This document shows, in pieces, positions 49,562-61,088 of a DNA stretch of 64,000 bases. The notes under the pieces are model-generated. The model made no database searches. It was not told the origin of the DNA and saw only the letters and a program-made list of their open reading frames with translations. Source of the stretch: a virus. The DNA is taken from IMG/VR virus record IMGVR_UViG_3300032236_001180, positions 60,556 to 124,555 of that record. One strand, given 5' to 3'. Position 1 is the stretch's first letter. Every line of letters starts with the position of its first letter. Position numbers and translations under genes: made by a program.

Positions 49562-51814
49562 ATGCCTGTAAATCGTGAAGTCAAAGGGATGCTGGCTAGA
49601 TGCCTCTCCCAAGAAAATTTGATTGTGGAATATAGGAATGTTCCTACTGCTTCTTTTGATGTAGAACGTAGATTACTTGTTTTGCCGAATTGGGAAAAGG
49701 CAAGTGATACGGTATTTACTATGTTAACACAGCATGAGTCATCCCATGCGATTTTTTCTCCGTCAGGAGAAGATTTTGATTATCACAAAAAATACCCAGA
49801 AGTTCCTCATGATATAGTAAATGTACTAGAAGATGTGCGTGTAGAAAAACTCTGCAAAAAGAAATATCCAGGAAGCGCAAGGCACTTCTTCAATGGTTAT
49901 CAAGAACTTCACAATGAAGATTTCTTCTGTACCAAAGATGAAGATTTGAATAAACTTTCATTCATTGACCGTATGAATCTTTATTTTAAAGTCGGTGCTT
50001 TTCTTTGTATTGATTTCACAGATGAAGAAAATGAGTATCTAACTCGTGCTTCACTCACAGAAACTTTTGATGATGTGTTGAAACTTGCTCGTGATATTGT
50101 AGAGTTTGTTCAATACAAACGAAAGAAAGTAGCAGAAATGCCTTCACAAGGAAATTCTGATGAAGATATGTCTGGTTCTGGTGAAGAAGTAGAAACACCG
50201 AATAACTCACAAAATCAAGAAGGTGAAGGTGAAAATAAGGATGGAGAAGGTCAAGAAGGTCAAGGTGACAATCAACTTGATCAACAATCACAAAGTCAAT
50301 CTTCTTCAAACGAAGAATCTTTCGGTGATGAAGTTTCTAAATCCCTAGAAGCACCAAAAGGTAGTGGTTCAAATGGAAAACCAAGTGATAAGCACGGTGA
50401 TTCTGATGTAGATGAGTTGAAATCCAAAACTTCCAAGTCTTTTGAAGAAAAAACAAAAAATCTTGTGGATAAGTTTGCGAAAGAGACTACTTATGTTGAA
50501 CTTCCAGAGTTCAATCTTGAAAATCTCATTATTCCAAATGAGTATATTCACAAAAAAGCAAAAGAATACATCAATGTAACTGATTATAACCGTAATCTTT
50601 TTAATGATTCTGTTATTCGTTATAAACAATACAAGAAATCTGCTGAAAAAGAAGTTTCTTATCTGGTAAAAGAGTTTGAATGTAAGAAATCGGCAGATCA
50701 ATATGCTCGTTCTTCTACTGCCCGCACAGGGATTCTAGACACTGCTAAACTTCATACCTATAAGTTCAACGAGGACTTGTTTAAGAAGGTCTCTGTGGTC
50801 CCTGACGGCAAGAATCACGGTCTTATCTTTGTTTTTGACTGGTCTGGTTCAATGGCAAATTTCATTCTGGATGCTTATAAGCAACTTCTCAATCTGGTTT
50901 GGTTCTGCCGTAAGGTAAATATTCCATTTGAAGTGTATGCTTTCACGTTGGATTGTAATTCTTATATTGACATTCAACCAAATCATCCTTCTACTTATAA
51001 GAAAGTTTCTGGTGTGATTGCTCCCGAACACGGATTTAGAATGTTGAATCTTCTTACCAGCAAAGTGAATAATAATGTTCTGGAAGAACAACTCAAACAC
51101 ATTTGGACTGTGTGTTCTGCGAATCAAGGTCAAGGTGGTGTTTATCTTCGTCACTTGGATCTTTCTGGTTCTCCAATTGGTGAATCTATTTTAAGTCTTC
51201 ACGCAATCATTCCACAGTTTCAGCAAAAGAATAAACTTCAAAAAGTCAATGTAATCTTTTTGACTGATGGTGAAGGGTATGTGAATGCTGTAACGACAGA
51301 AAAACAAGGTAATGGTTCAAATACCTATATGGGAACTAAAAAGAATTACAGTACTTCTATTCGTGATCGCAAAAGTGGTAGAGTTTATCGTTCCTTTGGG
51401 TATGATAATTTTGCTGAGTATGCTAAAATTCTTTTAGAAACTGTAAAAGACAAATACCCTTGGGTAAATCTAATCAACTTCCGTATTACTCCTGCTCGTG
51501 ATTTTTGGACTTGTTATAATTGGTATGGAAAGAAAAAAGGAGAAACTGGATTGCGATATTATGAACCATTGGTTGAGTCTGAAAACTACAAAAAAGTAAA
51601 GTCTTTGTTTAATAAAAACAACTTCGTTACTTTTGAAGGAACAGGATTTGACCAATTTAATGTGATTGGTTCCAGTTCTCTTTCCGTGAGTGCTGATTTT
51701 AATGTTCCTGATGATGCGACTACAACACAAATCAAAACAGCATTTTCAAAACTCTTGAACAAAAAGAAGACCAACAGGAAACTTCTTTCTAACTTTGTGA
51801 CTCTTATCTCCTGA
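49562..51814 (+). CDS. Metallopeptidase-motif/VWA protein (CobT-like partner of the AAA+ ATPase)
   Basis: ATG 49562 after promoter. HESSH (HExxH), NVLEDVRVE, acidic linker, MIDAS DWSGS and FLTDG. Confidence 0.85.
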   Translation: MPVNREVKGMLARCLSQENLIVEYRNVPTASFDVERRLLVLPNWEKASDTVFTMLTQHESSHAIFSPSGEDFDYHKKYPEVPHDIVNVLEDVRVEKLCKKKYPGSARHFFNGYQELHNEDFFCTKDEDLNKLSFIDRMNLYFKVGAFLCIDFTDEENEYLTRASLTETFDDVLKLARDIVEFVQYKRKKVAEMPSQGNSDEDMSGSGEEVETPNNSQNQEGEGENKDGEGQEGQGDNQLDQQSQSQSSSNEESFGDEVSKSLEAPKGSGSNGKPSDKHGDSDVDELKSKTSKSFEEKTKNLVDKFAKETTYVELPEFNLENLIIPNEYIHKKAKEYINVTDYNRNLFNDSVIRYKQYKKSAEKEVSYLVKEFECKKSADQYARSSTARTGILDTAKLHTYKFNEDLFKKVSVVPDGKNHGLIFVFDWSGSMANFILDAYKQLLNLVWFCRKVNIPFEVYAFTLDCNSYIDIQPNHPSTYKKVSGVIAPEHGFRMLNLLTSKVNNNVLEEQLKHIWTVCSANQGQGGVYLRHLDLSGSPIGESILSLHAIIPQFQQKNKLQKVNVIFLTDGEGYVNAVTTEKQGNGSNTYMGTKKNYSTSIRDRKSGRVYRSFGYDNFAEYAKILLETVKDKYPWVNLINFRITPARDFWTCYNWYGKKKGETGLRYYEPLVESENYKKVKSLFNKNNFVTFEGTGFDQFNVIGSSSLSVSADFNVPDDATTTQIKTAFSKLLNKKKTNRKLLSNFVTLIS

Positions 51815-51893
51815 ACCACTTTCGGAAGTGTCCCAAGGGCACTTCCGACCCTCCCCATCTCTGCTATAATTACAGAGTAATCAACCAAACCCG

Positions 51894-52472
51894 ATGTCTT
51901 CTAAAACTAAAATTATGTCTACCCAAGCAATTGAACTTTTGAAAGAAAAATACGGCACCGAGTTTGGTGCTGATGCCGTAAAACAAGTAGCAGCAGAACT
52001 GAATACTACTTACACTACACTCTCCAAATATCTTCAACCCCATAAAGTGGGAAGGGGCAAATGGAATCTTGAAGTGACGCAAGATAAAATTGATGAACTT
52101 GAAGATGCTTACATCTCTCCTTCTGTTGAACCAATTTCAACTATGAACTCTGTAATCCAAAATCTTATTCCTGAAAAAGATGATACCTTCGTCAGCTTTG
52201 GTAACTTTACTGATGTTAAGAAAGTTATTTCTTCTGGTCTCTTTTACCCTACCTTTATTACTGGTCTCTCTGGTAATGGAAAAACTTTCTCTATTGAACA
52301 AGCTTGTGCTGCTCTGAAACGAGAACTCATTCGTGTCAATATCACAGTTGAGACTGATGAGGATGATTTAATTGGCGGATTCAGGTTAGTCTCTTCAAAA
52401 AAACACACAATCAATTGTAATGATTATATGACCTTGAAGTATAAAGAATGGAAAAAAATTCATAATAAATAA
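51894..52472 (+). CDS. cobS: CobS/MoxR-like AAA+ ATPase, N-terminal half
   Basis: Walker A GLSGNGKT and RVNITVETDEDDLIGGFRLV, then a non-homologous 26-aa tail and stop. Confidence 0.85.
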   Translation: MSSKTKIMSTQAIELLKEKYGTEFGADAVKQVAAELNTTYTTLSKYLQPHKVGRGKWNLEVTQDKIDELEDAYISPSVEPISTMNSVIQNLIPEKDDTFVSFGNFTDVKKVISSGLFYPTFITGLSGNGKTFSIEQACAALKRELIRVNITVETDEDDLIGGFRLVSSKKHTINCNDYMTLKYKEWKKIHNK

Positions 52473-52475
52473 CAG

Positions 52476-52557
52476 TGCTTGTCTGTGGTTATTCAAGCAG
52501 AAAAGGGGCATTTTGCCCCTTTTCTTGTATAAATAGATATAACCACAGTCAAGGCAG
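52476..52557 (+). promoter_or_regulatory. Endonuclease leader: nested hairpin with late promoter
   Basis: CTGTGGTTAT(52483)/ATAACCACAG(52539) arms, inner AAAAGGGGCA-TTT-TGCCCCTTTT hairpin, TATAAATA at 52528. Confidence 0.7.
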
Positions 52558-53562
52558 ATGAATTACTACACTTACGCATTCTTGCGTAAAGACAGAACAC
52601 CTTATTACATAGGAAAAGGAAAAGGTAATAGGGCATATAGAAGAAGATATAAAGGTGAAGTAAGAGCACCAAAAGATAAGTCGAGAATTATTATCCTAAA
52701 ACAAAACTTAACCGAAGAAGAAGCATTTAAGCACGAAATCTATATGATTGCCGTGTTCGGTAGGATAGATTTGGGAACAGGTATTTTGAGAAACAGAACT
52801 AATGGTGGTGAAGGTAGTTCTGGTGTTGTGAGAAGTGATGAATATAGAAAAAATATAAGCAAAATACAAAAAGAACATCATAAAAATAACCCACACAAAA
52901 ACCCAATGTTTAACGCAGATGTTAAATTTAAATGGGAAAAAATCATTCAAAGTGATGAATATAAAAATAAACAATTACAATCTTCATTTAAACGGATAGA
53001 AGTATTTGTTGATGATATTTTATATTTAAGTATCAATGATGCTGTTAAAAAAACTGGTATAAAATATTGGTATTTTGAAGAAAAATTAAAATATACTAAT
53101 AAAATTTACTCTAATGAATATGATGAATGGAATAAAAATAAAAATTCAACAAAACCTTTATGTCTAAAAATAGACGGAAAAGAATATGACTCATTTGGTG
53201 AAGCAATAAAAATAACTAATATTTCTAGAACTTATATAAAAAAGTGTATTGAAAAAAATATTTCAATCACAAAAGAAGGATATGAACATTATAAAAAAAT
53301 ACATAGTCCTAAAAAAATTGAAATAAATGGAAGAACTTTTAATAGTTTAAAAGAAGCTTCCAAATTTACTGGACATAGCACAAAATATTTAAAAAAAAAT
53401 TATTTGGATAAGATACCTAAAAAAAAAAATATTAAAGTAGTCATAATAGAAGGAATAGAGTATTCTAGTATAAGAGAAGCATCAAGAAAAACTAATCTTT
53501 CACGAAGTTTCATAACTAAAAATTATGTCCAGTCGCAGACCACTTCCAGAACTGACCACTAA
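52558..53562 (+). CDS. GIY-YIG-type homing endonuclease inserted in cobS
   Basis: YYTYAFLR..PYYIGKG..R..EAFKHE..LRNRTNGGEG. Four NUMOD1-like repeats (I.G..Y.S..EA...TG/TN). Confidence 0.85.
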   Translation: MNYYTYAFLRKDRTPYYIGKGKGNRAYRRRYKGEVRAPKDKSRIIILKQNLTEEEAFKHEIYMIAVFGRIDLGTGILRNRTNGGEGSSGVVRSDEYRKNISKIQKEHHKNNPHKNPMFNADVKFKWEKIIQSDEYKNKQLQSSFKRIEVFVDDILYLSINDAVKKTGIKYWYFEEKLKYTNKIYSNEYDEWNKNKNSTKPLCLKIDGKEYDSFGEAIKITNISRTYIKKCIEKNISITKEGYEHYKKIHSPKKIEINGRTFNSLKEASKFTGHSTKYLKKNYLDKIPKKKNIKVVIIEGIEYSSIREASRKTNLSRSFITKNYVQSQTTSRTDH

Positions 53563-53619
53563 CCACTCTTTTGCCCCCCAATCCCTGCTATACTTACGAA
53601 GTAAGCAAAAAAGAAACAG

Positions 53620-54354
53620 ATGAACACTATTGCCATTGATGAAGTTGATTTTCATAATTTTCTTGAATGGTCAAGAATTAATGAATATATTCAAGATTAT
53701 GAATATGATATTGTAAATATTGACAATTCCAGTGAAACTGTATGGCACAATGGTCCTGTTGTAGAAGCAATGCAACGTGGTGCGATTCTTCTCTTGGATG
53801 AAATTGACTTGGCATCCAATAAGATTATGTGTCTTCAATCTGTTCTGGAAGGTAAAGGTGTATTCCTGAAAAAAATCGGCACAAATATTACTCCAAAAGC
53901 AGGATTTAATATCTTTGCGACTGCGAATACCAAAGGTAAAGGTAGTGATGATGGTCGTTTTATTGGAACTAATGTCTTGAACGAAGCATTCCTAGAACGT
54001 TTCCCGATTACTTTTGAGCAACAGTATCCTACTATTGCTTATGAAACCAAGATCTTGACGAAAGTTGCGGAGTCTCTTAAAATTCCTATGGTCGGTGAGC
54101 ACACCGATTTCATCAAGCACCTTTGTTCTTGGAGTGATATTATTCGTAAGACCTTCAATGATGGTGGTATTGATGAAGTTATCTCTACTCGTCGTTTGGT
54201 TCATATTATCAAATCTTATTCTATCTTTGGTAAGAAAGATAAAGCAATTAAAGTTTGCTTGAATCGTTTTGATGATGAAACAAAACAAACTTTTATTGAA
54301 TTGTATGACAAAATTGACGCAGAATTTGACCAAACCAAAACAGAAGAAGGTTAA
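53620..54354 (+). CDS. cobS: CobS/MoxR-like AAA+ ATPase, C-terminal half
   Basis: 38-aa novel head, then ETVWHNGPVVEAM, Walker B LLLDEID, sensor TAN, AFLERF and ISTRRL. Confidence 0.85.
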   Translation: MNTIAIDEVDFHNFLEWSRINEYIQDYEYDIVNIDNSSETVWHNGPVVEAMQRGAILLLDEIDLASNKIMCLQSVLEGKGVFLKKIGTNITPKAGFNIFATANTKGKGSDDGRFIGTNVLNEAFLERFPITFEQQYPTIAYETKILTKVAESLKIPMVGEHTDFIKHLCSWSDIIRKTFNDGGIDEVISTRRLVHIIKSYSIFGKKDKAIKVCLNRFDDETKQTFIELYDKIDAEFDQTKTEEG

Positions 54355-54401
54355 TTCCTTTTTCTCTGCTATATACACATAACCCCTTGTAAATTCTTCT
54401 T

Positions 54402-54542
54402 ATGACTTCACTTTTTGTAGAAATGGACCAAGACGCAATCTATGAATTTTTGGAGGAAAATCAGTTTGATGACATTGAGGATGAATATCCCGAATATCGG
54501 GAAGATAGAATGGAACAAATGATCTCACGTCACGGGTATTGA
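54402..54542 (+). CDS. Small acidic hypothetical protein
   Basis: 46-aa ORF MTSLFVEMDQDAIYEFLEE..., read directly (below track cutoff). Confidence 0.5.
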   Translation: MTSLFVEMDQDAIYEFLEENQFDDIEDEYPEYREDRMEQMISRHGY

Positions 54543-58121: not shown

Positions 58122-61088
58122 TTTACCTTGATAGTTTTGGTGGCAAGATTGGAAACATTATGTGGCAAAACACTTGGAATGAACTATGGGGACACACTGG
58201 ATTTTGGGAAAAAAATCCAGGAGAAAAAGGTCGTTTCACTCTTTGGGGTATTCGTCCTCGTCACAAAAACAATGGAGAAACTAAATGACTGAATATGAAA
58301 AAGACGGTTTTAATGCTCTTGCTATTGTGCTTGCGTTTGTCTTTTTTACTGGTATTATGTTTATAGGGGCAGGAAGGTCGGACTACACACTAAGAACCAA
58401 TAACTATCAAACTGCCCTAAAAATGATTACAGAGTGTAGAGTTCAGGCAAAACTAAATCCTGATAAGATTTGTGGTAAAATTCCTACCTGGGAGCAATAC
58501 AAATGATTTTTTCAAGGGCACTATTAGGAACTGATAAAAAGAAAACTAAACTTTCTTGGGTTGAATATATTTGGTTTTCTTGTATATGTCAGGGGTGGGC
58601 AAACTGTTGGTATGCCTTTCAGAATTGGGTAGATTTGATGAAGGACGACTACCAGGAATACGCACTTCTTGTATCTGATGACCCTTTGGAGCAGTGTATT
58701 TTATACTTCTGGGATAGTTTAGAGGATGATATTTATCCCAAAGAGTTCCTTGAATATCTGATGGGAATGGCAGACGAAGTTATGAGTGGAAAGGTGAAAA
58801 CTTATCCAATAGATGAAGTTTTTGATAGAGTTAAAAAAGAACTTACTGATTATGAATAAATTAAAATTAACCGAAGAACAACAAAAATTCCTTAAAAATA
58901 ATTTCAATAATTTTTCAGAAGAACTTATAAATTCCACTTTTCAATCTGTGATTGGTGGGGAACGGGAGTTAAAAGATTTTTGTACTATGGAAGGCATTGA
59001 GAGGCAACTCACAAGAGCAAATGATTATAATATGAATAGTTCTTTAATATTTTATGCTCATATGTATTATCCAGCAAAATGGAGAATTGAAAAAATGATA
59101 GTAACTAAACCTACCGCAGATGATGAACAAACCTGAATTTCCAAAACCAAGACTAATTCGTGAGGACTTTATGCCAGAAAAAGACATTACAACAGAATAC
59201 CGCATCAAAAAAATCACAAAAGGTGATATGATATATTTCCGTGCTCAAAGAGAATTTCTTTGGTGGTGGATTGATATTTATTATGAGACTGAATGGTATG
59301 AATTGGTAGTTCAATATATCAACGAAGATATTGTCAAGAGGACAAAACCTGTAATAGAATATCTTGATGTGACACCTGACGAACTGGCACCAAGAACTCC
59401 CAATCCCCCACCAAAGAACCCATAATACTCTTATAAGAAACCAAACCGATGAAATTTGAATTCAACTTTGTAAAAAAAGGGGTGTTTAACCTACCAAAAA
59501 CTGATTGGTGGGATTTTGACCCAAACGACCACATAGAAATTCAACCACATTGGACTATGGCACATTTGGCAGTAGAAATGGAATTATTCCCATCAGTTTC
59601 TATCGCAAGAAAAAACGGTTGGAATGAACCAATACCAAGAGGATACACAGAGAAAAGGAACATTGGCAAAATGAAAAAGTCTATGTTTATTCACAATCCA
59701 TCTGATGAATTTATTAACAATCCTGAATGGGGTAAAGACTAATGCGTCCAAATACCTATGTAATTCTTCAACGAGCAGTAGAAGAAGGAGCACTTCTTGG
59801 ATACCGAAAGGCATTCAAACGAGTTGAGAATCCAACAGAAGAACAAATTGTAGAAGCACTTACAGACGCAATAATGCTGACTGTAAGTGAAGTATTTGAT
59901 TTCCCCCATCAATCAGGAGATAGTTATTTGTGATGACTGAACTTTATATTTTGAAATGTGAAATTGAAGAAACCAAAATAGAACTTCAACAGAGCATTGA
60001 AAGAACGGAAAGAATTAAAAAACGACTTACGGTTCTGAAAGAAAAACTTTTAGAAATGGTTGGATCTGATGACCACAAAAATAGAGTATAAAAAATGAAA
60101 AAGTGTAAGACCTGTAAGCACTGGGATTATCAGGGTTTTAGAATGGGTAAGTGTTCTGGTATTCTGGCAAGTGCTCTGTTGATTGCAATTCCCAACCAAC
60201 CAAAAGGCAAACCCGATGGTAAAATGATTATGAGAGAAGGCATCACCACCAATTCAGATTTTGTGATAACAACTGAAAACTGGAACTGTAAAAATTGGAG
60301 TATGAAATGATTGATTTAAGTATCCTTGAACGACAATCAAATCTAAAATGTTGGTGTCAGGAATGTTGTAAAAAAGAAACAGGGGAATATAATGCTATTC
60401 GTGTAGTTGTATGTCCTGATTGTGGAAACAAACGATGCCCCCGAGCAACAAATCACGAGTTAGAATGTACAAATAGTAATGAACCGGGTCAAGAAGGGAG
60501 TATTTATTGAGGTATTATGAAATTTTATTACGACCGAGATTCACTTGAACTTATACATAATTTCATTTTTAGTTTAACTGAAAATGAAATCCGAAAAGTT
60601 TATCATAAGCACGGAGCATCTTATAATGATAGAGTATTTTTAGACCCATTAACATCAGAAACCTATAAAATCGGTCATTCTATCAGACTAATTCATGATA
60701 CTTTTACTGATGATGGTAAAGTTTATTTGGGTATTGATTACAAAAAAAAGTATGAGGAACTTGTAGAACTTCTAAAACCTTATAAACTTGAAGATGATAT
60801 GTCTCCTTCAACAACTCTCAAAATGATTTTGAAGTATCAGGTAAAATAATTATGATGGAATTTTTTGTTATCATGGTAAAAAGGCAAGATTGTAAAGTAT
60901 ATGCTGACTTACATAAAGCAACTGAAAAAATCTATCTTACTTATGAGGATGCCGAAAAAGAACTAAACGAATGTGGATTATATGGAGACTACTTCTATAA
61001 AAATTACTTCCATATTGTAAGACTTATTGCTTGTTTGCCAGAGACACTTGACGAACTGGCACAAGAGCACTCCCCAGATGCCCCTTGA
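58118..61088 (+). other. Cluster of small translationally coupled hypothetical ORFs
   Basis: ORFs at 58118, 58285, 58503, 58852, 59120, 59449, 59742, 59933, 60095, 60307, 60517 and 60852, mostly with overlapping or near-adjacent stop/start codons. 60307-60510 has Zn-binding CWCxxC..CPDCGNKRCPRATNH. Confidence 0.65.

Follow-up and report, generated by a model that had tools for sequence, protein, structure and literature searches.

We analysed a 64,000-nucleotide (nt) stretch of viral DNA, hereafter the window (positions 60,556 to 124,555 of the IMG/VR record IMGVR_UViG_3300032236_001180, a virus fragment of 124.6 kb), in which the gene cobS is interrupted at positions 51,894 to 54,354 by a homing endonuclease gene. 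The phage is a T4-like cyanomyovirus, and a BLASTN search with the region 51700-54500 matched 462 phage records, nearly all of them Synechococcus or Prochlorococcus phages. Three co-directional open reading frames (ORFs) of 192, 334 and 244 amino acids (aa) occupy the locus. The first and the third are two parts of cobS, which encodes a MoxR-class AAA+ ATPase, and are called here the N-half and the C-half; at the break each carries a stretch that lies outside the family profiles Pfam AAA_5 and PHROG 249, the N-tail and the C-tail. An earlier interpretation made from the letters alone (the sequence-only reading) had proposed that a homing endonuclease splits cobS and that the two tails may clasp the halves together. 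The features of the locus are as follows (pI, isoelectric point; GC, content of G and C).

51806..51893, plus strand: cobS upstream region, with a dyad at 51822-51848 (TCGGAAGTGTCC/GGGCACTTCCGA), a -10-like TATAAT at 51865-51870 and a CTGCTATA motif
51894-52472, plus strand: ORF of the cobS N-half, 192 aa, with the Walker A motif GLSGNGKT
51894..52391, plus strand: body of the N-half, comprising the N-terminal domain, strand 1 and Walker A, up to the first hairpin strand GGFRLV
52392..52472, plus strand: N-tail, 26 codons and a stop, basic, net charge +5, pI 9.7, 21% GC
52478..52553, plus strand: leader of the endonuclease gene, with nested stems and TATAAATA within the loop
52558..53562, plus strand: free-standing homing endonuclease gene, 334 aa, 26.7% GC, with a GIY-YIG-type N-terminus, NUMOD1 and I-TevI-like DNA-binding repeats
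53532..53619, plus strand: copy of a cobS-type upstream region before the C-half, ACCACTT-N46-CTGCTATA, with a -10-like TATACT at 53589-53594 and without the dyad
53620-54354, plus strand: ORF of the cobS C-half, 244 aa, with the Walker B motif LLLDE and the remainder of the AAA+ module
53620..53733, plus strand: C-tail, a start codon and 38 codons, acidic, net charge -8, pI 4.1, 24.6% GC
53734..54354, plus strand: body of the C-half, comprising the second hairpin strand ETVWHNG, Walker B, the sensor and the lid domain

The assignment of Walker A to the first ORF and of Walker B and the later motifs to the third, made in the sequence-only reading, agrees with both the ORFs and the profile matches. 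The AAA_5 profile is matched at positions 2-49 by the N-half and at 47-138 by the C-half, and PHROG 249 ('porphyrin biosynthesis') at 8-177 and 177-364, respectively; because the two stretches of PHROG 249 meet, the halves abut and no part of cobS has been lost. Residues 1-166 of the N-half are identical at 158/166 positions to an intact relative (P0005), and the C-half from its residue 39 is 91% identical to the same protein from residue 169. When joined, the halves give the complete Walker A, Walker B and lid of a MoxR-class AAA+ module. Among solved structures, the intact form is closest to midasin AAA domains (E 3e-50) and to the CobS structure 9ujv (E 5e-21), and whereas the two halves only jointly make up one complete module, all solved members of the MoxR/CbbQ/NorQ/CobS/midasin class are single chains. 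In AlphaFold2 single-chain models, only the N-terminal domain of the N-half (51894-52100, residues 1-70) is confidently predicted (predicted local distance difference test, pLDDT, 81-87); it is modelled as helix-strand-helix-helix-strand-strand and looks winged-helix-like.

To place the break we used intact relatives, obtained by a search with the first 50 aa of the C-half that yielded 80 loci, all of them intact cobS, 65 with full ORFs. At the break they read GGFRL[VIDN]-[NDA]G-[ESNDA]TVWHNG (GGFRLV-NG-ETVWHNG in S-PM2 and Sf-FS3), and in all 69 intact cobS genes examined the gene is contiguous with exactly two turn residues, which makes precise the earlier estimate of about two residues between GGFRLV and ETVWHNG. 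Since this two-residue turn is invariant among the intact relatives, the insert can be bounded at 52392-53733, that is, 1342 nt in place of 6 nt. We take the broken element to be the 'helix-2 insert' hairpin, from the alignment and general knowledge of the family rather than from a structure superposition. The loop at this position differs in length among midasin domains, which may be why the site tolerates an insertion.

The tails were recounted with the same outcome as before, 7 Lys and 2 acidic residues in the N-tail and 9 acidic residues and 1 Arg in the C-tail. Their length and charge are kept in the relatives: the N-tail is 26 aa long in 15 of the 16 variants tabulated (one has an extra final Tyr) and basic in 16/16 (net +2 to +6, pI 8.9-10.0), and the C-tail is 38 aa long and acidic in 10/10 (net -4 to -8, pI 4.1-4.3). 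When the window was compared with L092, a locus of the same layout in another phage lineage, the ratio of non-synonymous to synonymous rates (dN/dS) of both tails in frame was 0.157 (13.5 synonymous and 15.5 non-synonymous changes), compared with 1.78 and 0.57 for the same stretches read at +1 and +2. The corresponding ratios are 0.09-0.20 for the cobS bodies (0.09 for that of the C-half) and 0.28 for the endonuclease gene, while the N-tail gives 0.09-0.42 in six pairs. Judged by these substitution patterns, the tails are real coding sequence under purifying selection. The tails are rich in AT, with a GC content (21.0% and 24.6%) near that of the endonuclease gene (26.7%) and unlike that of the cobS bodies (37.3% and 36.4%), and are therefore part of the imported DNA.

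Searches with the tails returned little. TBLASTN against 50,697 phage records gave a single chance match at E = 5 for one tail and none for the other; a C-tail profile run against 1.84 billion representatives matched one sequence, which is another split C-half; and a search of the ESM Atlas gave nothing usable. The spacing TI-x11-EW, reported earlier for both tails, is indeed present, with T and W invariant in both across the variants, but its significance is weak: shuffling of the single sequences gives p = 0.05, and aligning the profile of the N-tail family with that of the C-tail family yields P = 0.003 across 23 columns, with a probability of only 10%. AlphaFold2 places a helix at the same position of this register in each (residues 177-190 for the N-tail and 8-20 for the C-tail). 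The suggested likeness to a ribbon-helix-helix dimer has no support, as no Pfam match was found.

The same split is present in relatives. Tailed C-halves of 244-250 aa (P0004 is called at 268 aa) were fetched as eight clusters, 80-95% identical overall, and together with L092 and P0241 they make up the C-tail carriers. Tailed N-halves are 177-210 aa long, and of 30 proteins fetched, 17 carry the tail, five a true N-intein, and eight are truncated or odd. A metagenome scan with a degenerate N-tail DNA pattern returned 18 stretches, four of them true (L088, L089, L092 and L094) and 14 due to chance. The near-identical L092 and L094 show the full layout, with a cobT-like gene, a tailed N-half, the endonuclease gene and a tailed C-half, and L088 and L089 show the N-tail followed by the start of the endonuclease gene. 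One pattern scan of IMG/VR returned no stretches, with a pattern so strict that it would miss the L092 tail, and a second returned four, all chance; the 50,697 phage records held no split cobS with the insert. A fused form with both tails did not turn up when proteins of 428-2000 aa were screened for words in common with the C-tail, which is weak evidence. Pseudogene-like decay in relatives, which would have refuted the sequence-only reading, was not seen: all halves observed are open with their motifs intact, and halves and tails are under purifying selection in many relatives.

In a maximum-likelihood tree of 93 N-parts, built with the tails left out, the 17 split rows require 14 changes of state, nine of which well-supported branches make unavoidable. 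With shuffled labels the mean is 15.6 changes, and 80 of 500 shuffles need no more than 14, so that the insert is scattered as if at random on the cobS tree, and the cassette as a whole is therefore mobile. The nearest relatives of the window's N-part are themselves intact genes, P0005 (95%) followed by P0018. The synonymous divergence (dS) is 0.66 for the tails and 0.55 for the endonuclease gene, roughly half the 1.2-1.5 seen in the cobS flanks, which, given saturation and composition, is only a hint of mobility. On a contig from another run of the same study, position 52375 is joined to 53732 by 20 other letters, and with its flanks the contig encodes an intact GGFRLVDGETVW; this hints weakly at an intact, related allele from the same habitat, since the shorter side measures only 27 letters.

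The endonuclease gene matches NUMOD1 (1.4e-7) and I-TevI_DNA-bd (9.5e-6) in Pfam and PHROG 314 'homing endonuclease' (5e-11). For its catalytic part no Pfam GIY-YIG model is significant, with a weak match to PF22945 LEM-3_GIY-YIG at E 0.014; a YTY...YYIGKG motif can be read at the N-terminus, and the first ~100 residues match by TBLASTN endonucleases of other cyanophages annotated as intron-associated or Seg-like. The GGFRLVNGETVW region of intact cobS is the putative target of this enzyme. A paralogous GIY-YIG gene lies elsewhere in the same phage (C1:47408-47683). Across 52546-52827, the catalytic-domain part of the gene, the summed contig depth in the run that covers the region best is 10-18 times that of the flanks, apparently from many related endonuclease copies of other genomes piling up.

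The leader of the endonuclease gene contains a perfect, GC, 12-bp inner hairpin at 52499-52525, found by inverted-repeat search, and a 15-nt outer stem (52478-52492/52539-52553) whose 3' arm stops 4 nt before the endonuclease ATG. L092 repeats this nesting with stems of another sequence, and an outer stem is also present in L088. The motif TATAAATA at 52528-52535, in the loop, is kept in the alignment of the window with L092, and we take it to be the T4 late-promoter consensus. In the classic T4 arrangement, the leader structure silences the endonuclease in read-through transcripts, while the late transcript is translatable. The structured leader and the late-promoter-like TATAAATA probably restrict expression of the endonuclease in the same way, a view for which Figure 5 of PMC3045599 is the basis beside this general knowledge.

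The 88 nt before the ATG of the C-half are homologous to the 88 nt before the ATG of the window's N-half (55/90 identical, z 6.8) and to their counterpart in L092 (64/91 identical, z 9.5); the upstream region of the L092 N-half itself is unrelated. The arrangement ACCACTT-N46-CTGCTATA, with its 54-nt spacing, is found in the window at two positions only, 51815 and 53539. From this homology it follows that the cassette carries a copy of the window-type cobS upstream region. The sequence-only reading had placed a dyad promoter at 53538-53594, before the C-half. Inverted-repeat search found no dyad in 53500-53630, the only one being that before the N-half at 51822-51848, of which the C-half copy keeps just the right half CACTTCC; what the C-half has instead is a paralogous copy of the upstream region of cobS, including TATACT. 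The CTGCTATA motif occurs six times in the window versus 1.8 expected, and a third copy at 54366-54373 lies right after the C-half stop, before the next small gene.

We propose, with a probability of about 0.62, that the cobS split by this cassette is made as two polypeptides that reassemble non-covalently into one AAA+ module, the tails aiding assembly. The proposal starts from what is directly observed: how the locus is built, that halves and tails are under coding selection, that the cassette moves, and that it bears no intron or intein signature. A free-standing GIY-YIG/NUMOD homing endonuclease cassette has entered the two-residue turn of the helix-2-insert hairpin and broken cobS into two genes. 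This cassette is one mobile unit, made up of the N-tail with its stop, the leader, the endonuclease gene, the cobS-type upstream copy, and an ATG with the C-tail in frame. The two halves would then be translated separately, from paralogous promoter-like regions, and would co-fold with no covalent joining. In the AAA+ sheet, strand 1 lies between strands that the C-half contributes, and the strand 1 of the N-half would slot between them. The oppositely charged, partly helical tails may help assembly or the next step, ring formation, and tail-aided assembly would leave the insertion nearly neutral for the phage.

The arrangement nrdA-a / mobE / nrdA-b of phage Aeh1, reportedly described by Friedrich et al. 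in 2007, is the closest known counterpart. There, mobE has split nrdA, and the resulting fragments bear AT-rich tails without database matches that are present on the mature proteins; deletion of the tails lowers activity ~2000-fold (Crona et al. 2011, PMC3045599). In Aeh1 as in cobS, the gene of a conserved phage enzyme has a free-standing homing endonuclease gene inserted between two neighbouring beta-strands, the tails are AT-rich compared with the host gene and have no database matches, and RNA structure holds the endonuclease in check, which for cobS is a prediction from sequence. The polarity of the tails is also the same: the first fragment has a basic C-terminal tail (pI 10.4 for NrdA-a, 9.7 for cobS) and the second an acidic N-terminal one (3.8 for NrdA-b, 4.1 for cobS; PMC3045599). 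The two systems differ in the endonuclease, HNH MobE versus GIY-YIG/NUMOD, and in the host protein, a ribonucleotide reductase (RNR) barrel versus an AAA+ ATPase. Moreover, Aeh1 is a single described case in one phage with one operon promoter, whereas the cobS cassette is polymorphic across many lineages and places a copy of the host-gene upstream region before the second half. Tail function is proven in Aeh1 and for cobS would follow by comparison. In presenting such tails as new, the sequence-only reading claimed too much, as essential basic and acidic tails on a fractured enzyme had already been shown for NrdA-a/NrdA-b of Aeh1 (PMC3045599).

Two further systems are comparable. In the T4 topoisomerase (gene 39 / mobA / gene 60), too, a T4-type gene for an enzyme is split in association with an endonuclease; enzyme and endonuclease differ from those here, and the role of the tails is as putative there as in cobS. 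The bypass in T4 gene 60 is without counterpart in cobS. Crona et al. noted tail-like charged extensions on the T4 topoisomerase split and predicted that tail-like sequences would occur on other endonuclease-fractured genes and be overlooked (PMC3045599). The metagenomic loci of Dassa et al. 2009 (PMC2677866) share with cobS the order of an N-half with an extension, a hairpin-preceded endonuclease gene (GIY-YIG or Vsr-like) and a C-half with an extension, as well as a cyanomyovirus-like source and electrostatically complementary extensions. Unlike their intein halves, the cobS extensions are of the wrong size and have neither a HINT signature nor conserved splice residues. The words 'cobS', 'cobalt chelatase', 'AAA' and 'porphyrin' do not occur in the main text of that paper. 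A search for literature linking cobS to a split intein found none, and one for cobS, cyanophage and homing endonuclease found, by title or the start of the abstract, no work on a split cobS.

Several points count against reassembly of the kind proposed. The single-chain models from AlphaFold2 are poor, with a mean pLDDT of 54 for the N-half and 46 for the C-half, and the tail helices reach only ~50-65; poor core models would fit half-domains unable to fold alone, and shallow alignments explain them equally well. The dN/dS of the C-tail (0.18, window versus L092) comes from only two independent full-length DNA copies, those of the window and of L092/L094. A generic sigma-70 scan lists neither upstream site, and promoter activity before the C-half is suggested by motif similarity only. 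For a cyanophage cobS, 'retains function' can be given only a loose meaning, no RNA run was found that contains the region, and the separate expression of the halves, their reassembly and the role of the tails are all reached by inference. Finally, the tails of Aeh1 are unnecessary for pairing of the fragments and are needed for dimerising the heterodimers (PMC3045599). By analogy, the tails of cobS may serve to build the ring, and a 'clasp' between the halves may name the wrong stage.

Within the literature searched, cobS is a second, independent case of an endonuclease-fractured gene with such tails rather than a new category; it shares the charge polarity of Aeh1 but neither its enzyme fold nor its endonuclease family. 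In contrast to Aeh1, cobS offers natural variation: there are ~17 N-tail and 11 C-tail variants, and split alleles lie among intact ones on the tree, so that tail selection, cassette mobility and tail co-variation become measurable. It also supplies a natural peptide pair of 26 and 38 aa that may drive reassembly of a split AAA+ domain. A bolder view, to which we give somewhat less than even odds, is that the insert is sufficient in itself as a homing cassette that both splits its host gene and provides for reassembly. The endonuclease with a timing switch of its own, a promoter serving the C-half and a tail pair that has co-evolved (weakly homologous, charge-complementary, strand-helix) would spread together among cobS alleles and do the job of a split intein without splicing. 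If this were true, such tail pairs would be a general, portable device making the insertion of free-standing endonucleases into conserved genes harmless.

The tails might, on the other hand, have no role in assembly. The split would then be tolerated, or cobS would be dispensable, and the tails would be by-products of the insertion, formed by read-through to the first stop and by the first usable ATG. That no homologues of the tails were detected elsewhere would fit this, and interdigitated alpha/beta halves may meet unaided, as the Aeh1 fragments do without their tails. However, the low tail dN/dS (0.16), the fixed length and opposite charge kept over all tabulated variants, and the match of the pattern to the experimentally essential Aeh1 tails all disagree with mere by-products. 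Conservation of the tails could partly reflect a recent spread of the cassette, yet synonymous changes dominate per site. We regard this explanation as unlikely, though deserving of serious consideration.

A good deal less probable is an origin of the tails as diverged duplicates of the cobS segments beside the break, by a partial duplication, rather than as foreign DNA. When anchored and ungapped, the C-tail aligned to the 38 residues upstream of the break beats 98.7% of shuffles (p = 0.013), MAFFT and BLASTP alignments extend through the C-tail, P0015 has TFSL where cobS has TFSI, and the promoter region is itself a duplicate. However, profile-profile comparison finds nothing, the unanchored local test gives p = 0.14, the N-tail against the downstream segment gives p = 0.47, and the GC content of the tails (21-25%) is that of the endonuclease gene rather than of cobS (36-37%). 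With a weak anchored signal only, and with no support from profiles or GC content, the duplication origin was rejected.

Very improbable, in our judgement, is a group I intron that contains the endonuclease ORF, with the tails as intron sequence open by chance and cobS restored by RNA splicing. It could be entertained because GIY-YIG endonucleases are often intron-encoded and relatives are so annotated, the parts of the insert outside the ORF (~340 nt) have the size of an intron core, a U ending GGTTAGT and a G before TGAAACT would permit an in-frame join, and the same phage has a genuine group I intron elsewhere. The Rfam model Intron_gpI, however, matches neither the window region (E <= 1) nor L092 (E <= 10), while as a positive control it recovers the phage's other intron at 50.6 bits; this negative is not absolute, as a 1-kb ORF within a loop lowers sensitivity. 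The tails are, moreover, under codon-level purifying selection in the reading frame only, with invariant length and stop and start positions, the spacer after the N-half stop is indel-rich between the window and L092, and the C-half has its own promoter-like region and conserved ATG. On the lack of a covariance-model match and the frame-specific selection the intron was rejected. The intron elsewhere in the phage lies outside the window at G000:C1:30844-31055 (L107), scoring above the Rfam cut-off, and a second, weak match of 17.7 bits at G000:C1:45641-45893 (L108) lies ~1.5 kb from the paralogous GIY-YIG gene.

We likewise give hardly any credence to the idea that the tails form a split intein, or what remains of one in active form, and join the halves by protein trans-splicing. 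Its appeal is that the charges are complementary, as in split inteins, that the cobS of relatives is split by a true split intein at Walker B (5/30 fetched proteins), and that the C-tail is of C-intein size with a stretch that, presumably, resembles DxxHNF. Against this, the tails total 26 + 38 = 64 residues, whereas the smallest HINT domain is about twice 64 residues and a split intein has ~100 + 35 aa. Neither tail matches a Pfam intein family at E <= 10, though the N-inteins of P0147 and P0149 are found by the same means. The would-be splice-junction residues are also unconserved: the C-terminal Asn is N in seven, S in three and F in one of 11 C-tails, the H and N of 'HNF' are replaced by YS or RD in three variants, the would-be first nucleophile is Y in one of 18 N-tails, and in two of the 18 the residue after it is V. 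Cyanophage-like sources are known to contain fractured genes in which a split intein is accompanied by a free-standing endonuclease gene (PMC2677866), but on size, profiles and junction residues a split intein was rejected here, in line with the non-intein cassette of the sequence-only reading.

In five relatives (P0147, P0149, P0154, P0161 and P0222) a true split intein breaks cobS at another site, immediately behind Walker B (LLLDE|C); Intein_splicing of Pfam matches at E 1e-8 to 7e-8 in P0147 and P0149, the two tested. These sequences mark cobS as a hotspot struck by two kinds of gene-fracturing elements. Three of the intein-split proteins (P0149, P0147 and P0161) have a longer turn at the window's insertion site, e.g., GGFRL-ASKGNSS-ETVFHKG, which resembles the first residues of the N-tail together with the last residues of the C-tail and could be either a footprint of cassette deletion or an ancestral target. 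In addition, seven short N-fragments of cobS (P0137, P0166, P0184, P0191, P0200, P0213 and P0223) end a few residues past TVWHNG or PVIEA; their endings are unrelated, ...CIAP being found in several, and some come from contigs of 75-200 kb; they are probably frameshift errors, the alternative being a third break site.

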